Shown: positions 1 through 57,835 of the stretch, one piece after another
Layout of the letters: every line of letters starts with the position of its first letter
Numbering within the stretch: position 1 is the first letter of the stretch
Origin: a virus
Taxonomy: Duplodnaviria > Caudoviricetes
IMG/VR virus record: IMGVR_UViG_3300037462_000280
Location: 1 to 57,835 of that record
Direction: 5' to 3' (one strand)
DNA: 57,835 bases
Notes under the pieces: generated by a model
Told to the model about the DNA's origin: nothing
The model's input: only the letters and a program-made list of their open reading frames with translations
Database searches by the model: none
Program-made: the position numbers and the translations under genes

Positions 1-127
1 AGAACGGGACATCTTCAAACTCATCTCTCTCGACCGCGCTCTCACGCTTCTCACCACCCCCAATGAACTGCACCGTACTCGCACGAATGCCCAAAGACGC
101 CTGCGCCTCCCCAGACTTGCTCACATA
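1..127. repeat. Terminal direct repeat (assembly overlap), identical to 57709-57835; circular genome
   Basis: First 127 nt match the last 127 nt exactly; the ssb ORF continues across the join. Confidence 0.97.
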
Positions 128-373
128 CGCCGACACGCTCACCTCCCCAACCACCAATACCTGCCGCCCCTTGCTCAGGTAACGCGCACTCGCCTCGGCA
201 CCCTTACCCCACTGCGTCACCTTGAACCACGTCGTTTCCTCACGCTTCTCCCCACCGCTCGTCGTCCACTTGCGGCTCACCGCCACGCTGAACTCACACA
301 GCTTCGTACCGCCAACCTCTTTCAACTCTGGTTCCTTGCCGACATTCCCGACAATCGTGATTTGCTGATACAT
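1..373 (-). CDS. ssb: Single-stranded DNA-binding protein (124 aa; stop codon wraps to 57707-57709)
   Basis: Manual translation, absent from ORF track: MYQQITIVGNVGKEPELKEVGGTKLCEFSVAVSRKW...EETTWFKVTQWGK...LSKGRQVLVVGEV...acidic tail EFEDVPF. Confidence 0.95.
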   Translation of the reverse strand, partial: MYQQITIVGNVGKEPELKEVGGTKLCEFSVAVSRKWTTSGGEKREETTWFKVTQWGKGAEASARYLSKGRQVLVVGEVSVSAYVSKSGEAQASLGIRASTVQFIGGGEKRESAVERDEFEDVPF

Positions 374-549
374 CACTTCACCTCTTCCCGCGCCTTGCGC
401 TTCTCAACCAAAACCACACCCTTACGCCGCTCAAACACCCGCTCCAGCGCTACCCACAACCCACGCTTCACCCGCCCCTCAGGCAACCCCTTCACCAAAC
501 CCATCGTCTCGACCAACATCTTCCCAAACTCAGAATGCTTGTTCTTCAC
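373..549 (-). CDS. Small hypothetical protein (58 aa)
   Basis: GTG start overlaps the upstream stop; its TGA overlaps the ssb ATG (TGATG coupling). Confidence 0.6.
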   Translation of the reverse strand: MKNKHSEFGKMLVETMGLVKGLPEGRVKRGLWVALERVFERRKGVVLVEKRKAREEVK

Positions 550-962
550 CGCACTTCCTCCCCGATACGCCGACTGAACACCAAAAACACCGTGTCATCC
601 CTCACCATCGTACCGTGCAAACGCTCCCAGTACGCCCCAGTCTGAGCATCCTTACTCAGAACAGCATACACCCCTCTTGAAACACCCTTCCCCTCAATCT
701 CGCAACCTGCCCAAATCGTCATGCCATCGCTTACCGCCTCGTCAGGCTTTGCCTCCATCACTTGCACTTCACCTACCGTAACCCCACCCTTCAGACACAA
801 ATACATGTCACCTAGCTTCACTATCTTGTCATTCACATCAGAATCATGGAACGCCGTCGCGCATCGCTTCGCCTCCATCTCAGCCTTCTCCCGTTCAAGG
901 TAAAACCCCATGCTCATCTTAAACCCACTACCCTCAAACGCCAGCACACTCACAACGTACAT
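546..962 (-). CDS. Hypothetical protein
   Basis: RBS GAGGGGAG upstream; fits the leftward operon. Confidence 0.75.
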   Translation of the reverse strand: MYVVSVLAFEGSGFKMSMGFYLEREKAEMEAKRCATAFHDSDVNDKIVKLGDMYLCLKGGVTVGEVQVMEAKPDEAVSDGMTIWAGCEIEGKGVSRGVYAVLSKDAQTGAYWERLHGTMVRDDTVFLVFSRRIGEEVR

Positions 963-1025
963 CCCGTTCTCCCCTCAGCCTACACAAATAGGCAACTTTT
1001 GACCCTTTACCAGACGAACCATTGC

Positions 1026-1037
1026 ATTATACCACAC
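1026..1037 (-). promoter_or_regulatory. Extended -10 promoter GTGTGGTATAAT
   Basis: TGnTATAAT; the same motif recurs at 2190(-), 14505(+), 26541(+), 55037(-). Confidence 0.6.
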
Positions 1038-2149
1038 TACAAAAGCATCGGCTGTGTCACTTTCATCCCTTCTACCAAAAACTTCCTGATGTTCTGCCCG
1101 CTAAACCACACCAACTCATCATACGCAATCGTGTAGTTCAGTATGGAACATTCGATGTTCCATACCCCACCATCAAACACCATCCCATTCTGTGCATTCC
1201 GCTCGTGCACATTGTAATCCACCGACAAAACCTGCGCCCCTATCCCTCTCATCTTCACAATCAAATCCAACTGCGCCTTCGGGTTCCCCCCCAGCAAATG
1301 CACCCGACGACCACGCAACTGCTCAAGTGGCGGCACATATCCCGCATAACTGCTCGGCACACTCACCGCAACAATGCAATCCCGAGGAATGTCCTGTATC
1401 GCACCTTCAAACTTCGGCACAACCCCAATCCGCAAAACCCCCAACCCACGCAACATCTCTATCTCGCGCAACATCTCCTCTCTTTGCTCTGCACGCTCAT
1501 AATCCCGTACCATCGCAAACACAGGACGATACTTCTGCACAAGCGGAATAAAACGCCTCTCATACTCCTCAGTCGTGCTCAACTTTTTCCAGTCACAATC
1601 CAACATAAACGGCCAGTCCCGCGCACCCTCACTCGAGCGCGTCCCATACGCCATCCCAGAATACCCCGCCCACGCCGGCACCTTCCGATTACTCCCCTGA
1701 CAATGTATCGCCAACAACCTCATCTCCCATACATTCAACGGGCGCTTATGCCCATCCTCCACACCCACCATCTCAAACCCCAAACCCGCATAAAACATGT
1801 TCGACCCCACCATGTCAGCAGGGCACTTCAACCGCACCGGCGTCGGCACCGCATACACCAACGAACGGCCTATCCCAACCCCCTTATACCCACGCCTCAC
1901 CGCCACCTCATATATCGTATTCCACCCATCCTTCCGACCATACCAACTCACAAACCCCACAACCTCCCCATCTACCTCACAAACCAACAACTCCCCACGC
2001 CTCGCTGCCTCACGCAACGACGCCAAATTCACAAACCCAAACGCCTCAGCATTCTCCCTCACTATCCCCTGACACACCTCAGCATCCCCAACCAACCCAT
2101 AACGCAACTGCCGCCTCACCCAATAACACTCCAACGGCTTCTTCTTCAT
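1037..2149 (-). CDS. GNAT acetyltransferase fused to a TGT-like (DUF6610-like) domain
   Basis: N-terminal GNAT motifs (VCEVDGEVVGF, IYEVAV, YKGVGIGRSL, SNMFYAGLGF); C-terminal MLDCDW, VVPK, SVPSSY, RRVHLLGG, SVD; ATG 2149 after GAAGGGGGAG. Confidence 0.7.
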   Translation of the reverse strand: MKKKPLECYWVRRQLRYGLVGDAEVCQGIVRENAEAFGFVNLASLREAARRGELLVCEVDGEVVGFVSWYGRKDGWNTIYEVAVRRGYKGVGIGRSLVYAVPTPVRLKCPADMVGSNMFYAGLGFEMVGVEDGHKRPLNVWEMRLLAIHCQGSNRKVPAWAGYSGMAYGTRSSEGARDWPFMLDCDWKKLSTTEEYERRFIPLVQKYRPVFAMVRDYERAEQREEMLREIEMLRGLGVLRIGVVPKFEGAIQDIPRDCIVAVSVPSSYAGYVPPLEQLRGRRVHLLGGNPKAQLDLIVKMRGIGAQVLSVDYNVHERNAQNGMVFDGGVWNIECSILNYTIAYDELVWFSGQNIRKFLVEGMKVTQPMLL

Positions 2150-2189
2150 CACAACTCCCCCTTCAATCACTCATTACCCCAATCAATCC

Positions 2190-2201
2190 ATAGTACCACA
2201 C
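2190..2201 (-). promoter_or_regulatory. Extended -10 promoter for the leftward operon (GTGTGGTACTAT)
   Basis: Matches the recurring motif; lies ~40 nt upstream of the ORF start. Confidence 0.5.
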
Positions 2202-2546
2202 TTTAACAAAATCTGGGGCGGCTGAAACCCAAATTTTTCGCAGGGGGGACAATACGCGGCGGGGCTGGCTTTTCGCTAAAATGCAGAAACCCTGTCCCGA
2301 CGATGTTACAATCCTCTCATCCTCGGTTGCTGCTCAATGGCGAGGCTGGCTAGGCCATATCGCTATGCTAGGTATCAATCCACAATCGCCACAATCGCGC
2401 TAGGATAGGCCTAATTTGGACGCTAGGGGGTGCTACGGCACAATCTACCGCAAACGCGCCTAACCCGCTTAAATCGCGTGTTTGGGGCGTGTTTTGATAT
2501 TGCACCCCAATAATTGGGGGTCGGCAGACAATTGTGTTTTTGGCGC

Positions 2547-2576
2547 TTGACACATTTTCGGATTAGGCGTTATGAT
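2547..2576 (+). promoter_or_regulatory. Sigma70-type early promoter
   Basis: TTGACA-18 nt-TATGAT. Confidence 0.7.
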
Positions 2577-2582
2577 GGTGGT

Positions 2583-3033
2583 ATCAAGCGAGGACACAAG
2601 GGAGGGCACGGCAAGGCGGGACGGTAGCCACGTCCGATAGGCGGGATAGGCAAGCCAAGGTCAGAATAAATACACGTGCGGGACTCATATGTGCAGCGCG
2701 GGGACAGGTGGCAATAGCCACTAAGCCGCGGTACGTGCAGCATGGGATGGAATACGTGCGCCGCGAGGTTGACTGGCGGACACGGGCAACGCGCCTGACT
2801 TGAAACAGAGTCGGGGTACGTGGGCATAAGACTGTGCAAATGCGCTGACGCGGCGCTAGGCTTGCTAGAATCTCTGGCACCTTAACATATCGTCATGGGT
2901 GGAACCCGCTTGCCTGCTGGGCTTGCGCTGGACACGACGCATACGGGGCTACGTTTGCCTCGCACGATTGAAAAAACGTACAAGCGCGTGCCTAAGCACG
3001 CAAAGTCGAAACACGCCCATACGTGGGCGTGTA
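2583..3033 (+). ncRNA. Putative ~450-nt structured non-coding RNA
   Basis: No credible ORF; many GU-containing hairpins, a candidate pseudoknot; bounded by a promoter and a hammerhead cleavage site. Confidence 0.6.
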
Positions 3034-3072
3034 TGCGTGAGTTGGCTACTCACGTGCTGATGAGACAAGCCA
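3005..3072 (+). ncRNA. Type II hammerhead self-cleaving ribozyme (cleaves after GUA, 3033)
   Basis: GUC-GAAA-CACGCCCA(UACG)UGGGCGUG-UA-UGCGUGAGU(UGGCU)ACUCACGUG-CUGAUGA-GAC, then AGCCA complementary to loop I. Confidence 0.92.
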
Positions 3073-3094
3073 CACCACTAGGGGACAAACAACC

Positions 3095-3361
3095 ATGAGC
3101 ATCTTGACCAAACTGCAAGCTATCCGCAACCAACAAGCCAACGAACGCAACCAACAAACGATTGAACGGGTTTTCCCGCGCTTGCAAGCGCGCTACGCCG
3201 CGGCCATCAATCGGCGTGACGTGTTGGCCGCCGAATTGCAATACAGCCGTGACGCGGCCACCCGCCGCGATTACGCCGCCGCGTGCGCAGAAGTGGCCGC
3301 GTGCGAGGCTATCGCCGCTCGTCTGGACAATCTGGACATGTCGGCAATTGCGGAAGTCTAG
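3095..3361 (+). CDS. Hypothetical helical protein, first early gene
   Basis: RBS AGGGGA, ATG. Confidence 0.7.
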   Translation: MSILTKLQAIRNQQANERNQQTIERVFPRLQARYAAAINRRDVLAAELQYSRDAATRRDYAAACAEVAACEAIAARLDNLDMSAIAEV

Positions 3362-3574
3362 TCCGCTGATTGAAGAAACTTCACACTGGTTAACTTTGCG
3401 GTTTGACCAGTGTGAAGTTAACCACGGTTAAAAGTAGGCACGTGTCGCTTAGTCGCATATGCGGGTAAGCGGGATTTTCAGGCTTAAAGTTTAGGATAAG
3501 CCTAGCTTATGTCAGTTGTCATAAGTTTGGCTTATGGATAAGCTATAAGCAAAACCGATAGAAGGGGTGATGAG

Positions 3575-3850
3575 ATGAGCGATAACAAGCCAGTGGGTTA
3601 TTGGGATTTTCAGGTTGATTTAGGGGATGGGCGCGCTACCACGGTTATCACGGAGGTATCGCCCGATGAGTTCACCTATGGGGATTGGGCGCGTTTGGTG
3701 GCTTGGCGTGCTACCAATCATGGGGAAACTGTGACGTATCACAAGCGCTCATTCCCAGATGGGATTGAGAAGAAGGTAGCGCTTGGGCGCGCCTTGCGCG
3801 TGCGTTGGGCGTATCGGCATGGGGGGTGTGAGCGTCATGAGCGGGTTTGA
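3575..3850 (+). CDS. Hypothetical protein
   Basis: RBS AAGGGGTG. Confidence 0.7.
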   Translation: MSDNKPVGYWDFQVDLGDGRATTVITEVSPDEFTYGDWARLVAWRATNHGETVTYHKRSFPDGIEKKVALGRALRVRWAYRHGGCERHERV

Positions 3851-4085
3851 GGTTGAATTGGGCGGGTTGTTAGGGGCGATAGTGGGTGGCGTGTTGGTGT
3901 CTGCACCGCTACCGCTGATCTTGTGGGCGTTGGGTTGGGCATTCGGCAAGCCTAAGGGTAAGGGGGATGATAGCGCGCCTGTTGTGAGCGAGCGGGTTAT
4001 GAATCGGCGGCTTAAGGCGTTGGAGGCTAAGGCGCGCCAAATTGAGAATGAGCGTGACGCTGAGTATGGGCGTCGGGCGCGGTAG
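3837..4085 (+). CDS. Small membrane protein with coiled tail
   Basis: Hydrophobic N-terminus GGLLGAIVGGVLVSAPLPLILWALGW. Confidence 0.7.
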   Translation: MSGFEVELGGLLGAIVGGVLVSAPLPLILWALGWAFGKPKGKGDDSAPVVSERVMNRRLKALEAKARQIENERDAEYGRRAR

Positions 4086-4178
4086 GTTTGCCGTAGCGTG
4101 TGGCTATCTCATCCCAGATAGCCACACCATAGGGCAATTCTGCGTGTGCAGAATGTTTAGAAGTGAAGTGAGGGTGTC

Positions 4179-4490
4179 ATGGGCGCTATGGTGTCTTTGG
4201 GTTATTGTGAGGGTAAGTCTTTTGAGGAAGTGGAGGCCTTACAAGATAAGTGGTCAGACAAGCGCGCCTACTATTTCGACAAAGCGATGGTGAAGTTAAG
4301 CGGCGCTTGCATTTGGCGCAAGCGGGAGGGCTTATGTGAGCGTTTGGCGCGTTTGGAATTGACGTTAGAATCGTGTTGGGGGGATTTGTATTTCTCTGGC
4401 TATTTTGAGATGGACGACAAGCCCACCTATACCCTTGCCTTGCGTGCGGAGATGTACGAATCGTACATCCAACCCCCTACACCCCTTTAG
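4179..4490 (+). CDS. Hypothetical protein
   Basis: RBS GAGGGTG; follows hairpin element. Confidence 0.7.
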   Translation: MGAMVSLGYCEGKSFEEVEALQDKWSDKRAYYFDKAMVKLSGACIWRKREGLCERLARLELTLESCWGDLYFSGYFEMDDKPTYTLALRAEMYESYIQPPTPL

Positions 4491-4570
4491 AATGACCCTA
4501 GCGCGCCCCTCACCCCTTAGGTGGGGGGCGTCATAGGGCAATTCTGCCTATTTAGAAGTGAAGGTGTGAC

Positions 4571-4972
4571 GTGAGCAAGATGACACAAAAGAACGCAATC
4601 GCCAAATTGAAGGCGATATATGGGGACAAGTTTATGGGCGCCTATGGGGGTGTGCGGGGGGTTTGTGTGGTTATTCGTGACCCTATCCCAGACCGCTACG
4701 TGCCGTGGGCGAAAATTGCTACCCTCACCATCACTGCAAAGTCTTGGGCGCGCCTATTGAAATTGGTTGCCAACGCGCCGGTCTATGGGGAGATGGGGTG
4801 GGTGTGGGCGTCGGAAGATGCACGAGAAGTGTTTCTTAATGAACAATGGGCGCGTCAAGTCTGGTCAGATTTAGCGCAAGACGCACTGTACGCACACGGC
4901 AAGATGACGACAACGCGCCTCCCCGCCCCGTGCGCGCACGCTGAAATTTCAATGTACTCTGACCCCCGCTAA
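4571..4972 (+). CDS. Hypothetical protein
   Basis: RBS GAAGGTG, GTG start. Confidence 0.7.
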   Translation: MSKMTQKNAIAKLKAIYGDKFMGAYGGVRGVCVVIRDPIPDRYVPWAKIATLTITAKSWARLLKLVANAPVYGEMGWVWASEDAREVFLNEQWARQVWSDLAQDALYAHGKMTTTRLPAPCAHAEISMYSDPR

Positions 4973-5070
4973 CCCTCAACTGCGCCGCTCACACCCTCCG
5001 GTGTGGGCGGTTGAGTTGGCGATTAGCCACCCGTGCCGCGCCGGTTCTGCGCGGGCAGAAGGAGTCTGTT

Positions 5071-5547
5071 ATGCCTAAGCGAGTGACCCTCAAGCATGTT
5101 GAGGACGTGTTTCGTAATGGTGTGTGGGGAGGGTTCCTCATGCCCGCGGGCTACACCCCCGAACACTTTGTGTTCTTCCATGTGAACGGCATGTGCGCGC
5201 TAGACATGCGTTTGTTGGGGGGAAGTTCCCGAATCGACTTAGCGCGGGGCACGGCGCGGGAATTGTTGGGGGCGGTGCAGAACCCTGACACGTTCGCGAA
5301 AGCCCAACAGTGGGCGTGGGAGAAAGAAGTTGAGGTTGAGAATGAGGTTATCGGCCAACGAATCGGGTTTGCTGAAACCTTCCCCCACTACACGGGGCAA
5401 TTGGAAGTCATCCAAGATCCGAACGCGGCGGAGGGCAAGACCGCGTACCGCTTGACGTGCGAGCGCCGGTTCATGTCGGGTTTTGCCCTCAAGCTTGAGG
5501 TACAATCGCCTTGCCTGTCCGAGATTATCCCGCATATGCCCCGCTAA
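5071..5547 (+). CDS. Hypothetical protein
   Basis: RBS AAGGAG before ATG 5071. Confidence 0.75.
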   Translation: MPKRVTLKHVEDVFRNGVWGGFLMPAGYTPEHFVFFHVNGMCALDMRLLGGSSRIDLARGTARELLGAVQNPDTFAKAQQWAWEKEVEVENEVIGQRIGFAETFPHYTGQLEVIQDPNAAEGKTAYRLTCERRFMSGFALKLEVQSPCLSEIIPHMPR

Positions 5548-5630
5548 CCCTCACCCTGCTACGCCCTATATCATAGGGCGTAGTGCGGTGGTGATTAGTT
5601 TAGCCACTAGGCAAAACAACGGAGGTGCCT

Positions 5631-6107
5631 ATGACACACAAAGAACAATTTGAAGCCGCCCTCTACGCAGAATTGCAGAGGCAGGATAACGGGGGTGAAT
5701 TAGGGGTATACAATGCGTTTTGGACTAAAGAAGACCAGCGACATTTTGACTGGAGGCAATCCATCCGAGACGATCTTCACGCCCGCCTGAAGAAGAAGAA
5801 AAACGGGTGCATTATTGAAATCCCAACCCATGACGCGGATATGATTCGGCCAAATGGGAGTGTGAGGTTTCAATATCGGGATAGAAAATCAGAGGTGCGA
5901 AAGTACACGCCCGAATCAATTGCACGCTACGGGGTCGAACATGGGGTGAAGCGGGTTAGTGTTCTGCGTTGGGTTCAAGACACCGATGGGATAATGTGCG
6001 TAACGTCGGAAACATGGGAGATTCAGGGGGATAAAGCGGTTAAGTGGGTCTATCGCCCAAACGACACAACCCCTAAGAAAAAGAAAGGGCGTAACATTAA
6101 ACGCTAA
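5631..6107 (+). CDS. Hypothetical protein, basic C-terminus
   Basis: RBS GGAGGT. Confidence 0.75.
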   Translation: MTHKEQFEAALYAELQRQDNGGELGVYNAFWTKEDQRHFDWRQSIRDDLHARLKKKKNGCIIEIPTHDADMIRPNGSVRFQYRDRKSEVRKYTPESIARYGVEHGVKRVSVLRWVQDTDGIMCVTSETWEIQGDKAVKWVYRPNDTTPKKKKGRNIKR

Positions 6108-6194
6108 CCCTCACCCTGTAACCCTCTATAGTCTATATAGAGGGTTGTGCGGTGGTGTTTAGCCACTGATACGCATGTGAGCATGGAGGCTAAA

Positions 6195-8048
6195 ATGCGT
6201 GGTGAAGTTTTAGAGGATTCTCTGAGCGCGGGGATTAAAGCGCTCAAGAAAAACCTCGCCTCGGCGGGTGCGAAAACCGCCAAAGACCAACGGGACATCC
6301 CTGTTACCCTGTCGGTCGGGACACGTTCAGACCTTTGGCTATCGGTGCAAAACCACCGTTTGGCCGTAACCCCTGTTCGAATCGCGTGCAATTGCCACAT
6401 GAGCGGCGCGGTGCAACTGCCCGCTGGGATTGTCACAGGGGTGTTTCTCAAGTCGCTTAAGGGGTTTGGGCGTGTAGAATTGGTGGCCGATATGGACACC
6501 CTCAATGTGATTGGTGTGGGGGGGGCAAAGTTCGCCCTCAACATCCAACGTGCCCCTGAACCCTCATTAGAGGCTGAACAGCCTGTGTGGGAGGCGATTA
6601 TCAGCAAGACCGACGCTAAGGCGCTTGCCGAATTGGTCGGGTTGGCAGATGAGAATGACTATACGCCCGCTATGCGTTGCGCGTATGTGTCGTGCGACGG
6701 TCAAATGCTGAAGGTGCAATTGGCCAACGGTTACACCCTCGGGGAGTACAGGCGCACATTTACGGGGCGTATACCTGAACTGCCTCGCGTTGCCCTGCTA
6801 CCGGTCAGCCTCGGGCAAGCCCTGCGGTCGGTCAAGACCGCAAAGTCGGCTTACGATGTCAATCTCAAGATGTTCAGCAATCGCTTAGAGGTGTGGCAAG
6901 ACAAGCGGCTAGGCGAATCGCCCATCGTGCAGGAAGTCAAATGCCCGTTTGACCCGCTCGACAACTATCGTCAATCGCCTGAAATTCAGGTATGGATGGA
7001 TGTCGATGACCTCATTACGGGGGTTGAACGTGCCGCGTGTGTGGCGCAGGGTGCTATCACCCTCAAGTTTTGCCCAAATGACCGTATGGTCATCGTTTCG
7101 GGGGAAAATGACAACGGTATCATGGAAACAGAGCGGGATGCGACATACGTATCTTGTGATTTGTCGAACCGCAAACCAACCATAACCCTCAACCTCAACA
7201 CCATGTTGGTAGCCCTGCGGGCAGTCAAACAGACCACCCGCACCGTGTTACTGCGGGTCGGGGATGGGTTCTTTCAAGACAAGGTGAGGTTTAGTGGGGA
7301 CGGCGCACACGTCATGATTTTGGCAATGAACCCTCCCGAACGTTCTGCCCGCGCAGAAACGCCCAACCCTGATGCTGAGATGCTAAGTCAATGGTGGTGG
7401 CAAAAGAGTGAGGCGGCGCGTCGTCGGGCACAAGCGCGGTCGGCAAGCAAGCCACCCACGATTGACCTGAATGTCAACATTCACGCCACCGGCCTGCTAC
7501 CACACGGGCAAGCCCTGTACAAGCTCGACTCTTTGGAGAAGTTGCAACAGTACGCTGAAAAGACTTGGGCAACGGCATCTCATTCGGAACGGGCTTGGGC
7601 GCTCAAGAAAATTTGGGAGCGCTTGCCCTCGGCGGCCAAAATTCGCGCCCAACACACCGCCCGCGTGCTCATCTCTCGCGCCACTGCGGATAAGCACCGT
7701 GACCGGATTGCAGAGTTGCACGTGCAAATGGGACATATGCGCCTGATGTGCCGAGAGATGCTTGAGAAACTGTTGCAAGCCAAGACAGACTGGCACCGGC
7801 TTGACGCTCTGTACGGCACTGCTATGGCAGTGGCTCGGATGGTAGAAAATGACGATGAGTTGCGCCCGCAGGGGTTGCAAGCCGTGCTTGCCGCACACGA
7901 CAACGTGAAGGCGGCCAAAAAGCTACTCGACATCGCCCTGAGTAATGCGCGCCGCTGGTTTGGGTACCTGCGCGAGATGCAAAATGAGATTGCAACCCTC
8001 ACGGAAAAGGTGCAAAGTCTTGAGAAAGTTGAGGTTGCGACGGCATAG
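6195..8048 (+). CDS. DNA polymerase III beta-clamp-like protein with ~230-aa helical C-terminal extension
   Basis: DnaN-like pattern (SGAVQLPA, LKVQLANGYTL, DDLITGVERA, ITLNLNTMLVAL, HVMILAM), then coiled coil; RBS GGAGG. Confidence 0.7.
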   Translation: MRGEVLEDSLSAGIKALKKNLASAGAKTAKDQRDIPVTLSVGTRSDLWLSVQNHRLAVTPVRIACNCHMSGAVQLPAGIVTGVFLKSLKGFGRVELVADMDTLNVIGVGGAKFALNIQRAPEPSLEAEQPVWEAIISKTDAKALAELVGLADENDYTPAMRCAYVSCDGQMLKVQLANGYTLGEYRRTFTGRIPELPRVALLPVSLGQALRSVKTAKSAYDVNLKMFSNRLEVWQDKRLGESPIVQEVKCPFDPLDNYRQSPEIQVWMDVDDLITGVERAACVAQGAITLKFCPNDRMVIVSGENDNGIMETERDATYVSCDLSNRKPTITLNLNTMLVALRAVKQTTRTVLLRVGDGFFQDKVRFSGDGAHVMILAMNPPERSARAETPNPDAEMLSQWWWQKSEAARRRAQARSASKPPTIDLNVNIHATGLLPHGQALYKLDSLEKLQQYAEKTWATASHSERAWALKKIWERLPSAAKIRAQHTARVLISRATADKHRDRIAELHVQMGHMRLMCREMLEKLLQAKTDWHRLDALYGTAMAVARMVENDDELRPQGLQAVLAAHDNVKAAKKLLDIALSNARRWFGYLREMQNEIATLTEKVQSLEKVEVATA

Positions 8049-57128: not shown

Positions 57129-57365
57129 CTATTCCCCGCACACATACGCGCCGTCGCGCTCATCACACTCGACAAGCGTCATATCACCGTTGGCAAACTC
57201 AACACGCCACACATCCGCAGTCAAGAAGCTCCCCTCTAAGACCAGCGTCGCCTTCTGCGCGCCCGTATAACCCAGCACCACTTCTGCATGGGCAGACCAC
57301 TGCGCTACCGTACTCACCAGCGAGACCGCAAACAAGACCAAGCCCAACAGCACCAAACGCCCCAT
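57129..57365 (-). CDS. Small secreted/membrane protein
   Basis: MGRLVLLGLVLFAVSLV. Confidence 0.6.
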   Translation of the reverse strand: MGRLVLLGLVLFAVSLVSTVAQWSAHAEVVLGYTGAQKATLVLEGSFLTADVWRVEFANGDMTLVECDERDGAYVCGE

Positions 57366-57369
57366 GTTC

Positions 57370-57720
57370 TCACTTCCCTTCGCTGAGCTTGCGCTCGATA
57401 CACTTGATAACCACATCCACACACGCTTTCGGGTCAGTCTCGAGTTGTTGCGTTGAGAACCGAAACACCGCCCAACCTCGTGCAGCCGCCTCATTCATCT
57501 TCTCGCGGTCTGCATCTCGATTGTGCCGCCCACCACCTAAGACCCACTGCCCACCATCCACCTCAACAGCTATCTTGAGATGCTCATCCGCCCAGTCAAA
57601 CCGCCACTTTCGCGGCTTGGCAAACGCATACTCCCCAAGCCATAACACCGCAGCAGGGGAGGCTTCCCCAAACGCTAACCACGCAAATTGCCACAGGCTA
57701 GACTTATCAGAACGGGACAT
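57370..57720 (-). CDS. Vsr/DUF559-like PD-(D/E)xK endonuclease
   Basis: EY.F...RKWRFD.A...KIAVEVDGG.W...GRH....D.EK.NEA...GW.V.RF. Confidence 0.88.
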   Translation of the reverse strand: MSRSDKSSLWQFAWLAFGEASPAAVLWLGEYAFAKPRKWRFDWADEHLKIAVEVDGGQWVLGGGRHNRDADREKMNEAAARGWAVFRFSTQQLETDPKACVDVVIKCIERKLSEGK

Positions 57721-57835
57721 CTTCAAACTCATCTCTCTCGACCGCGCTCTCACGCTTCTCACCACCCCCAATGAACTGCACCGTACTCGCACGAATGCCC
57801 AAAGACGCCTGCGCCTCCCCAGACTTGCTCACATA

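Follow-up and report, generated by a model that had tools for sequence, protein, structure and literature searches.

In the genome of a virus of the class Caudoviricetes (IMG/VR record IMGVR_UViG_3300037462_000280; 57,835 bp, analyzed whole and hereafter called the window), positions 2583–3033 lie between an early promoter and the cleavage site of a type II hammerhead ribozyme, directly ahead of the first early gene. We lean toward the view that these 451 nt form the untranslated leader of an early operon, a cis-acting regulatory cassette that the hammerhead would detach. The promoter is a close consensus match, the leader contains no credible open reading frame (ORF), and the architecture of the ribozyme is upheld by covariation. 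In two related phages, L163 and L164, the sequence between promoter and ribozyme is exchanged for another one, which has a covarying structure and a boxA. A promoter-to-ribozyme noncoding unit, as proposed in a preliminary description made from the letters of the window alone, is real and positionally conserved, since both relatives keep it at the same place. Transcription of the leader, its in vivo cleavage, whatever fold or function the version present in the window (type 1) may have, and a role in antitermination are inferred.

Promoter and Absence of a Coding Sequence

Two claims of the preliminary description, the TTGACA/TATGAT promoter and the lack of a credible ORF behind it, are borne out (table 1). 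The promoter is a strong match in itself, in a region (positions 1–8000) where the count of promoter-like sites is unremarkable (four found, against 5.0 in shuffled sequences). The transcript is expected to start near A2583. Sixteen ORFs of at least 25 aa overlap positions 2210–3090; all are short or rich in Cys, Arg, and Pro and do not resemble proteins, and no credible ORF was found in the ~420 nt of 2583–3003. It is therefore extremely improbable that the leader hides a gene for a small protein or peptide. ORFs of 31–98 aa do occur on both strands, but their translations have the same Cys/Arg/Pro-rich composition and no ribosome-binding sites, and the longest on the plus strand (2895–3098) runs across the hammerhead. 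None of the three phages has an ORF in its leader that is conserved in the others: the ATG of a 42-aa ORF in L164 is missing from L163.

The Hammerhead Ribozyme

The hammerhead named in the preliminary description is present. Its core consists of CUGAUGA (3057–3063), GAAAC (3008–3012), and GUA (3031–3033), all identical in L163 and L164, and the predicted cut falls between A3033 and U3034, 61 nt upstream of the first early ORF. Around this core we recognized an open stem II of 3 bp (3005–3007/3064–3066), a stem III of 9 bp (3011–3019/3024–3032), which carries a 14-bp extension in L163, and a stem I of 8 bp (3034–3041/3049–3056). The segment UGGCU of loop I (3043–3047) can pair with AGCCA in the 3' tail (3068–3072). 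The resulting pseudoknot has 5 bp in L163, as in the window, and 3 bp in L164. A pseudoknot of this kind defines most of the type II hammerheads described by Perreault et al. (2011, PMC3088659). Across the three sequences (window, L163, and L164), the 25 pairs have 95.9% of their cells paired; 8 of them show compensation, compared with 0–1 in controls with slid partners. The stems differ among the three sequences yet stay paired, which is good evidence for a functional ribozyme, with cleavage as its predicted activity. No second ribozyme was detected upstream (2200–3500, E ≤ 10).

Type II hammerheads were also observed elsewhere. In L147, an unrelated phage contig, the 3' half of a hammerhead, from CUGAUGAGACAAGCCAC to the ribosome-binding site, is 86% identical to that of the window; the match (L147 3278–3345, minus strand) extends through the ribosome-binding site and the start codon over 50 nt, and the ribozyme starts on the stop codon of the preceding gene. 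This sharing suggests a mobile "hammerhead plus ribosome-binding site" module. In L108 (G035), two hammerheads at 2715–2781 and 3668–3738, of 48.7 and 37.7 bits and both above the threshold, bracket a single 288-aa ORF, each ~20–30 nt before a start codon, an arrangement like that described in 2011.

Exchange of the Leader in Related Phages

L163 and L164 were obtained by a metagenome scan with the first early ORF (ORF88). L164 is 85.3% identical to the window at 543–2552 and 86.0% identical at 3057–3562. Over the ~500 nt in between, from just past the −35 hexamer to CUGAUGA, blastn finds no similarity. In L163, the sequence likewise differs from that of the window past the −35 hexamer and becomes similar again at 3030, three bases short of the cut. 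Both relatives keep the promoter, as TTGACA-17-(G/T)ATACT (10 of 12 consensus positions in L164 and 11 of 12 in L163), the hammerhead, the ribosome-binding site, and the ORF. The leaders are of 451 nt in the window, ~447 nt in L164, and ~508 nt in L163. Further relatives were found in public sequencing runs of a second study, from freshwater; their contigs match the window as far as 2552 and pick it up again at 3030 or 3057, breaking where L163 and L164 do. From these runs, only covered stretches were taken as evidence. These breakpoints point to early-leader cassettes exchanged by recombination inside the promoter hexamer and the ribozyme core.

Between L163 and L164, the leaders are homologous (Smith–Waterman score 119, against 12.4 ± 1.5 for shuffles). 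They share a core of 186 nt (type 2, model R1), aligned without gaps and with 42 differences. According to the RNAalifold structure, 30 of the 42 fall in the 96 paired columns, 28 of them in doubly changed pairs. All cells are paired and 14 of the 48 pairs are compensated, against 0–2 in slid controls, a count made on only two relatives and on the alignment from which the structure was derived. The compensatory changes are of RNA type and include G-U pairs. Conservation is higher in unpaired than in paired columns (87% vs. 69%), as is usual for an RNA whose loops are functional. The compensatory evidence that the slot of the relatives holds a folded RNA is strong. The core has no match in Rfam, and its model was found in none of the 98 other hammerhead-bearing loci and not in the window; among 100 sources it recovered only L164 itself. 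This previously uncatalogued structured RNA is the most interesting solid result of the analysis, and it sits in the sister phages.

About 10–20 nt downstream of the core, both relatives carry GCGCUCUUUAACA, the 11-letter center of which is a boxA by its sequence. This exact match, GCTCTTTAACA, occurs at 586–596 in L163 and 3674–3684 in L164, ~160–200 nt before the cut, and in only one other of the 164 loci. It fits the consensus GYTCTTTAANA and the rrn boxA UGCUCUUUA as given in PMC5725501 and PMC2724277. Upstream of it, the 5' part of the L164 leader (3398–3480) is CA-rich, with (CA)n runs and a repeated GCAAGC; it is a C-rich, G-poor sequence of the type on which Rho loads.

Because the sister phages carry in this slot a different, folded, and boxA-bearing leader, we read the slot as one for cis-acting regulatory leader RNAs. 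By analogy with lambda N/nut and HK022 put, the cassette of the window, devoid of boxA, may be a cis-acting element of another type. Just as well, it may be mere filler, or a leader whose high G and low C content is enough to escape Rho.

The Leader of the Window

The type 1 leader could not be assigned to the family found in its relatives. Its Smith–Waterman scores against the two leaders are 16 (reached by 7 of 200 shuffles) and 12 (112 of 200), with shuffles at 12 ± 1.5. The leaders nevertheless share 26 8-mers, against 9.2 ± 4.9 for other windows of the genome (4 of 1127 as high), including GGUAGCCAC, AGGCAAGCCA, ACGGCAAGGCG, and ACCUUAACAU, which occur in a different order, and a resemblance to L163 is seen over the first ~20 nt past the start site. 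Poverty in U is common to all three leaders (14–16%); the 16% of the window compares with 21.2 ± 2.4%, and only 0.7% of its sense-strand windows are as poor in U. We read these likenesses as distant kinship or shared constraints, not as membership of the same RNA family.

The complementary segments listed in the preliminary description are all present where it had placed them. We scored seven of these helices in the Boltzmann ensemble; four are supported and three have a probability of about zero. The supported ones are GUGGC/GCCAC (1.0), GCGUGC/GCACGC (0.97), CCUGACUU/GAGUCGGG (0.96), and GGACG/CGUCC (0.33). The others are CACGUGC/GUACGUG (2673/2737; 0.0), CGCGG/CCGCG (2697/2730; 0.04), and the long-range AGGCAAGC/GCUUGCCU (2648/2915; 0.0), the last displaced by a pairing of 2649–2656 with 2859–2866 at 0.93. 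Three local hairpins (2707–2722, 2794–2815, and 2986–3001) are robust in the ensemble. At the place of the third one, the relatives have CAGCGCG-CUAC-CGCGCUG, so that a GC-rich tetraloop hairpin precedes the hammerhead in all three phages. A kissing contact between loop GUAGCCA (2624–2630) and loop I of the hammerhead (3044–3050) was considered: the 7-nt complementarity exists in the window and L163 and fails in L164, and it is thus probably due to chance.

Rfam gave no match at gathering score anywhere in the window. At E ≤ 10, the hammerhead is the sole credible match in 2200–3500, and none was obtained there for RNase P, tmRNA, or group I and II introns, to which the preliminary description had been unable to match the leader. 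No tRNA or tmRNA was found.

Homologues of positions 2200–3094 were sought widely. No similarity was detected in GenBank phage records (blastn), in 55 IMG/VR loci with a like hammerhead (nhmmer), or in 35 loci around homologues of the neighboring GNAT-DUF6610 gene (nhmmer and blastn), and the 36 full virus records behind these last loci gave only chance matches of 14–26 nt. With the whole window as a blastn query, all the collected loci yielded just two matches, the 50-nt one in the hammerhead of L147 and a weak one in coding sequence of L059. Scans of IMG/VR retrieved six stretches with the promoter context, none of them similar, nothing for either of two motifs of the relatives' core, and no relatives in single-protein scans. 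In GTDB genomes, the ORF88 alignment gave 44 pattern matches, of which none was confirmed, and the pattern joining hammerhead and ribosome-binding site gave none. The only type 1 homologue found is a 252-nt contig of the second study, which lies on 2581–2818 with 23 differing letters. The comparative check suggested in the preliminary description thus returned no alignable type 1 homologue, and no alignment for the window leader. Given the folded RNA of the relatives, the slot may fairly be described as holding a discrete and structured RNA that is made first, but the type 1 sequence itself cannot be aligned to that RNA.

Regulatory Leader or Passive Spacer

Several observations weigh against the reading of a regulatory leader detached by the hammerhead. 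No boxA lies in 2200–3100 (0 sites within one mismatch of the consensus GYTCTTTAANA, which is gammaproteobacterial; PMC5725501), and the site with two mismatches at 2877–2887 is at chance level (11 found, 11.8 expected). The model of the relatives' core, run on 2000–3600 with filters off, scored at best 10.9 bits, on an unrelated hairpin (3380–3416). The leader has a minimum free energy of −177.2 kcal/mol (z = −2.23; 3 of 100 shuffles as good), and the antisense strand is nearly the same (z = −2.03). When every 421-nt window of the genome (both strands) is regressed on GC content, the leader has a residual of −0.31 standard deviations, and 35% of these windows are at least as stable. The "dense structure" of the preliminary description was not confirmed by these values, and that the 450 nt of the window are a densely structured, undescribed RNA is not established. 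At 31 bits, the hammerhead stays below the Rfam gathering score of 37 and is not listed at gathering in the window, and Rfam reports no hammerhead in L163 or L164 at E ≤ 1. The small basis of the type 2 core, mentioned above, belongs here too. Finally, the early region is mosaic overall, the second gene being unrelated in all three phages; replacement of the leader alone is therefore no proof of function and may reflect a lack of constraint.

These points raise the alternative of a passive spacer, that is, 420 nt of mosaic filler or remains of lost genes, from which the hammerhead only trims the mRNA to a defined, hairpin-protected 5'-OH end and the released RNA is inert. The ordinary folding energy, similar on the antisense strand, the type 1 leader without alignable homologue or Rfam match, and the exchange of adjoining early genes among the three phages are all consistent with it, as are the type II hammerheads of L147 and G035, which stand directly between genes with no leader. 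We nevertheless hold this explanation to be rather unlikely. Selection for RNA structure is plain in the leader that occupies this slot in the relatives, the length of the leader is kept, all three leaders are ORF-free, and the excess of shared words and the poverty in U point to constraint. Moreover, a strong promoter followed by a long untranslated spacer would come at a cost and lay the transcript open to Rho.

The preliminary description had proposed an RNA acting in trans. The released 451-nt RNA would be a decoy, a sponge, or an anti-defense RNA binding a host protein or RNA. Both of its predicted ends would be protected, by a 5' triphosphate and by a 3' hairpin with cyclic phosphate, which would favor accumulation. 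It also sits in the first-transcribed and highly mosaic early region; counter-defense genes usually sit in early, mosaic regions of phages. The relatives' core has conserved loops with a repeated GGCAAG (six and five copies in ~430 nt). This word is not enriched in the leader of the window (two copies) and is common genome-wide (75 vs. 41.7 expected), and we dropped it as a shared binding word. Nor does the leader contain tandem repeats or YNNGG arrays, and its complementarity to the rest of the phage, as expected of an antisense RNA, does not exceed the shuffle level. We found no evidence for the "anti-defense decoy or scaffold" and consider a trans-acting RNA quite unlikely.

Proposed Mechanism

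According to the cis-acting leader reading that we favor, host RNA polymerase would start at the sigma-70 promoter (2547–2576) and make an ~450-nt noncoding RNA. The type II hammerhead would be made next and would cut after A3033. The released leader would end in the stem III hairpin with a cyclic-phosphate 3' end, and the mRNA would start with a 5'-OH, carry the stem I hairpin, and have a 61-nt lead ahead of the first ORF. Between the −35 hexamer and the core of the hammerhead, the sequence behaves as an exchangeable cassette, and the RNA in this slot would act in cis on the transcribing polymerase, by antitermination or by resistance to Rho. The hammerhead would do, constitutively and independently of the host, the job of RNase III in the lambda N leader, uncoupling the leader and its binders from translation of the first gene.

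A more specific version can be put forward tentatively, and we judge it somewhat unlikely as a whole. The slot would be a swappable one for ribozyme-released regulatory RNAs; those of the relatives would depend on boxA and Nus factors, and the boxA-less one of the window would act on the polymerase or through a host factor by an undescribed mechanism, put-like or new, with the hammerhead substituting for RNase III. The "antiterminator" of the preliminary description finds indirect support in the boxA of the relatives, but the window has no boxA.

Genome Setting of the Leader

The virus record is identical in its terminal 127 bases at both ends. Rightward genes extend from 3095 to ~33.8 kb, and leftward genes run from the far end through base 1 back to ~2170. 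Gene directions diverge around 2200–3095, which is therefore a divergent control region. The nearest leftward genes encode a GNAT-DUF6610 fusion (1037–2170), a 138-aa protein, and SSB; the rightward neighbors are small ORFs without family assignment. Capsid, portal, and terminase are distantly related to those of cultured phages, with a capsid identity below 30% and none of 41 records covering 80% of the query. The GNAT acetyltransferase–DUF6610 fusion (minus strand) has 132 homologues at E ≤ 1e-5, many of them on phage-sized contigs, the closest being only 55% identical. Synteny through this gene was abandoned: the homologues of L057 and L058 lie inside a co-directional cluster, and identity to the closest homologue is low.

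Table 1. Features of the Early Control Region and Leader (Coordinates in the Window)
Feature	Position	Strand	Remarks
15-bp palindrome CCCCAAT-A-ATTGGGG	2505..2519		Perfect; ~30 bp upstream of the −35 hexamer
Sigma-70-type early promoter TTGACA-18-TATGAT	2547..2576	+	11/12 consensus matches
ORF-free leader (type 1), predicted 5' cleavage product, 451 nt	2583..3033	+	U-poor (16%), purine-rich (59%)
Hairpin GGACG-GUAGCCA-CGUCC	2619..2635	+	Pair probability 0.33
Hairpin GGUGGC-AAUA-GCCACU	2707..2722	+	Mean pair probability 0.99; without comparative support
Hairpin CCUGACUU-GAAACA-GAGUCGGG	2794..2815	+	Pair probability 0.96; without comparative support
Hairpin GCGUGC-CUAA-GCACGC	2986..3001	+	Pair probability 0.97; 3 nt before the hammerhead
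Type II hammerhead ribozyme (predicted)	3004..3075	+	31 bits, E = 5.4e-4; Rfam RF02276, gathering score 37
Shine–Dalgarno-like AGGGGA	3080..3085	+	9 nt before ATG; identical in L163 and L164
First early ORF (ORF88), 88 aa	3095..3361	+	No family; 81% and 93% identity in relatives

The block upstream of the promoter (2205–2552) is noncoding, yet ~85–95% conserved in L163 and L164. It contains the palindrome of table 1, a candidate operator by its sequence, kept in L164 with one central change. GCTAGG occurs four times within 80 bp of this block (2349–2427), with no enrichment genome-wide (16 found, 17.6 expected). A 19-nt complementarity between 2485–2503 and 3000–3018 was discarded; its first half lies upstream of the promoter and it is not kept in L164.

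Strand asymmetry is extreme at 57200–57835 and 1–2200, where the GC skew of the plus strand is −0.4 to −0.7 (e.g., 15 G vs. 89 C in 2001–2200) and stops abruptly at 2200. This stretch spans the leftward SSB, 138-aa protein, and GNAT-DUF6610 genes, the other leftward genes having a skew of only −0.05 to −0.2. On the rightward side, 3400–4000 is also G-rich (+0.3 to +0.5). Whichever way they leave the control region, transcripts are thus rich in G and poor in C, for which avoidance of Rho and R-loop priming are possible reasons.

Such a setting invites the idea that the leader is a DNA-level element, a replication origin or a protein-binding control region in which transcription is incidental. 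Leftward genes give way to rightward ones here, where the cumulative GC skew also reaches its minimum, the non-template strand of the flanking stretches is strongly G-rich, and the palindrome and GCTAGG repeats are near. We regard this as very unlikely: the repeats and the conserved noncoding block (2205–2552) are upstream of the promoter, outside 2583–3003, the leader has neither iterons nor an AT-rich tract, and the compensatory changes of the relatives are those of an RNA.

ORF88 is predicted to form a helical hairpin, and its Atlas model yields only generic helical-hairpin look-alikes. Just after it, 3377–3419 forms a near-perfect 17-bp hairpin with no U-run behind, possibly a processing site or a protein-dependent terminator. 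After GC correction, 3151–3720 is the most stable region of the genome (residual −47 kcal/mol). The hairpin region is variable in the relatives, and contigs show a joint there that "goes back 45." The second early gene encodes a different, unrelated small protein in each phage (window 3575–3850; L164 4344–4667; L163 1416–1625), and co-variation of leader type with second gene was dropped for this reason. A 103-aa ORF of the window (4179–4490) is absent in L163 and replaced in L164 (4988–5563) by a 191-aa pentapeptide-repeat-like ORF. This looks like a hotspot for accessory genes directly behind the leader. An intergenic module consisting of a hairpin, CATAGGGCAATTCTGC, TTTAGAAGTGAAG, and a start codon is duplicated at 4086–4180 and 4497–4575, with a copy number of exactly two (at ≤3 mismatches, 0.42 occurrences of the first word are expected); these are possibly phage-specific promoters or translation signals.

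Comparison with Known Systems

The leader falls into the same size class and phage context as ROOL, GOLLD, RNase P, tmRNA, and group I and II introns, yet none of these families matches the window at gathering score or 2200–3500 at E ≤ 10. These families are part of Rfam 15. The vrRNAs of VIPR are also noncoding RNAs of phages located in long intergenic stretches, and some are described as hammerhead-released; they are of ~100 nt, with 9–16 tandem YNNGG units followed by a conserved tail (bioRxiv 10.64898/2026.04.26.720920). The longest YNNGG run of the whole window has three units and none lies in 2583–3033, which rules out this identity.

The hammerhead itself has the core, the open stem II, and the pseudoknot of known type II hammerheads (RF02276; Perreault et al. 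2011, PMC3088659), and, like those described there, it sits ~20 nt before a ribosome-binding site. In that account, prophage hammerheads flank genes, and in the haloviruses HF1 and HF2 one lies 13 nt before the first early ORF. The gene-flanking hammerheads it describes are inside polycistronic transcripts, whereas that of the window ends a 450-nt noncoding leader directly behind the promoter. The biological role of phage hammerheads is presented as an open question in a review (PMC6765202). The context here is unusually clean, with the ribozyme at the junction of a long noncoding early leader and the ribosome-binding site of the first gene. In the more specific version put forward above, the hammerhead would release this ribosome-binding site from the complex on the leader, and phage type II hammerheads would thereby gain a concrete biological role.

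Swapping of leader cassettes has a precedent in HK022 put and lambda N/nut: closely related phages have, in identical positions, alternative and nonhomologous promoter-proximal RNA modules that make polymerase resistant to termination, one with and one without boxA. The put RNAs measure ~70 nt and consist of two defined stem-loops; no part of the window was shown to resemble them, and no downstream terminators were identified.

The closest likeness is with the PL leader of lambda. There, nutL lies ~200 nt upstream of N, the leader between them is structured, and RNase III modulates the repression of N translation that N and the Nus factors exert at nutL, according to PMC5725501 (citing Wilson et al. 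1997, 2002). The window has in common with it an early promoter, an untranslated leader of a few hundred nucleotides, structured in lambda, and a processing site, predicted in the window, just before the ribosome-binding site of the first gene. Unlike lambda, it would rely on a self-cleaving hammerhead instead of RNase III, its leader has no boxA, and neither a boxB nor an N-like arginine-rich protein was identified, ORF88 having no family. The order of elements in the relatives parallels that of lambda PL closely: promoter, structured RNA, boxA, ~160–200 nt of hairpins, processing site, and ribosome-binding site. This parallel leads to a testable hypothesis, namely that cleavage by the RNA itself stands in for the RNase III step known from the lambda N leader, uncoupling the RNA controlling elongation from translation.

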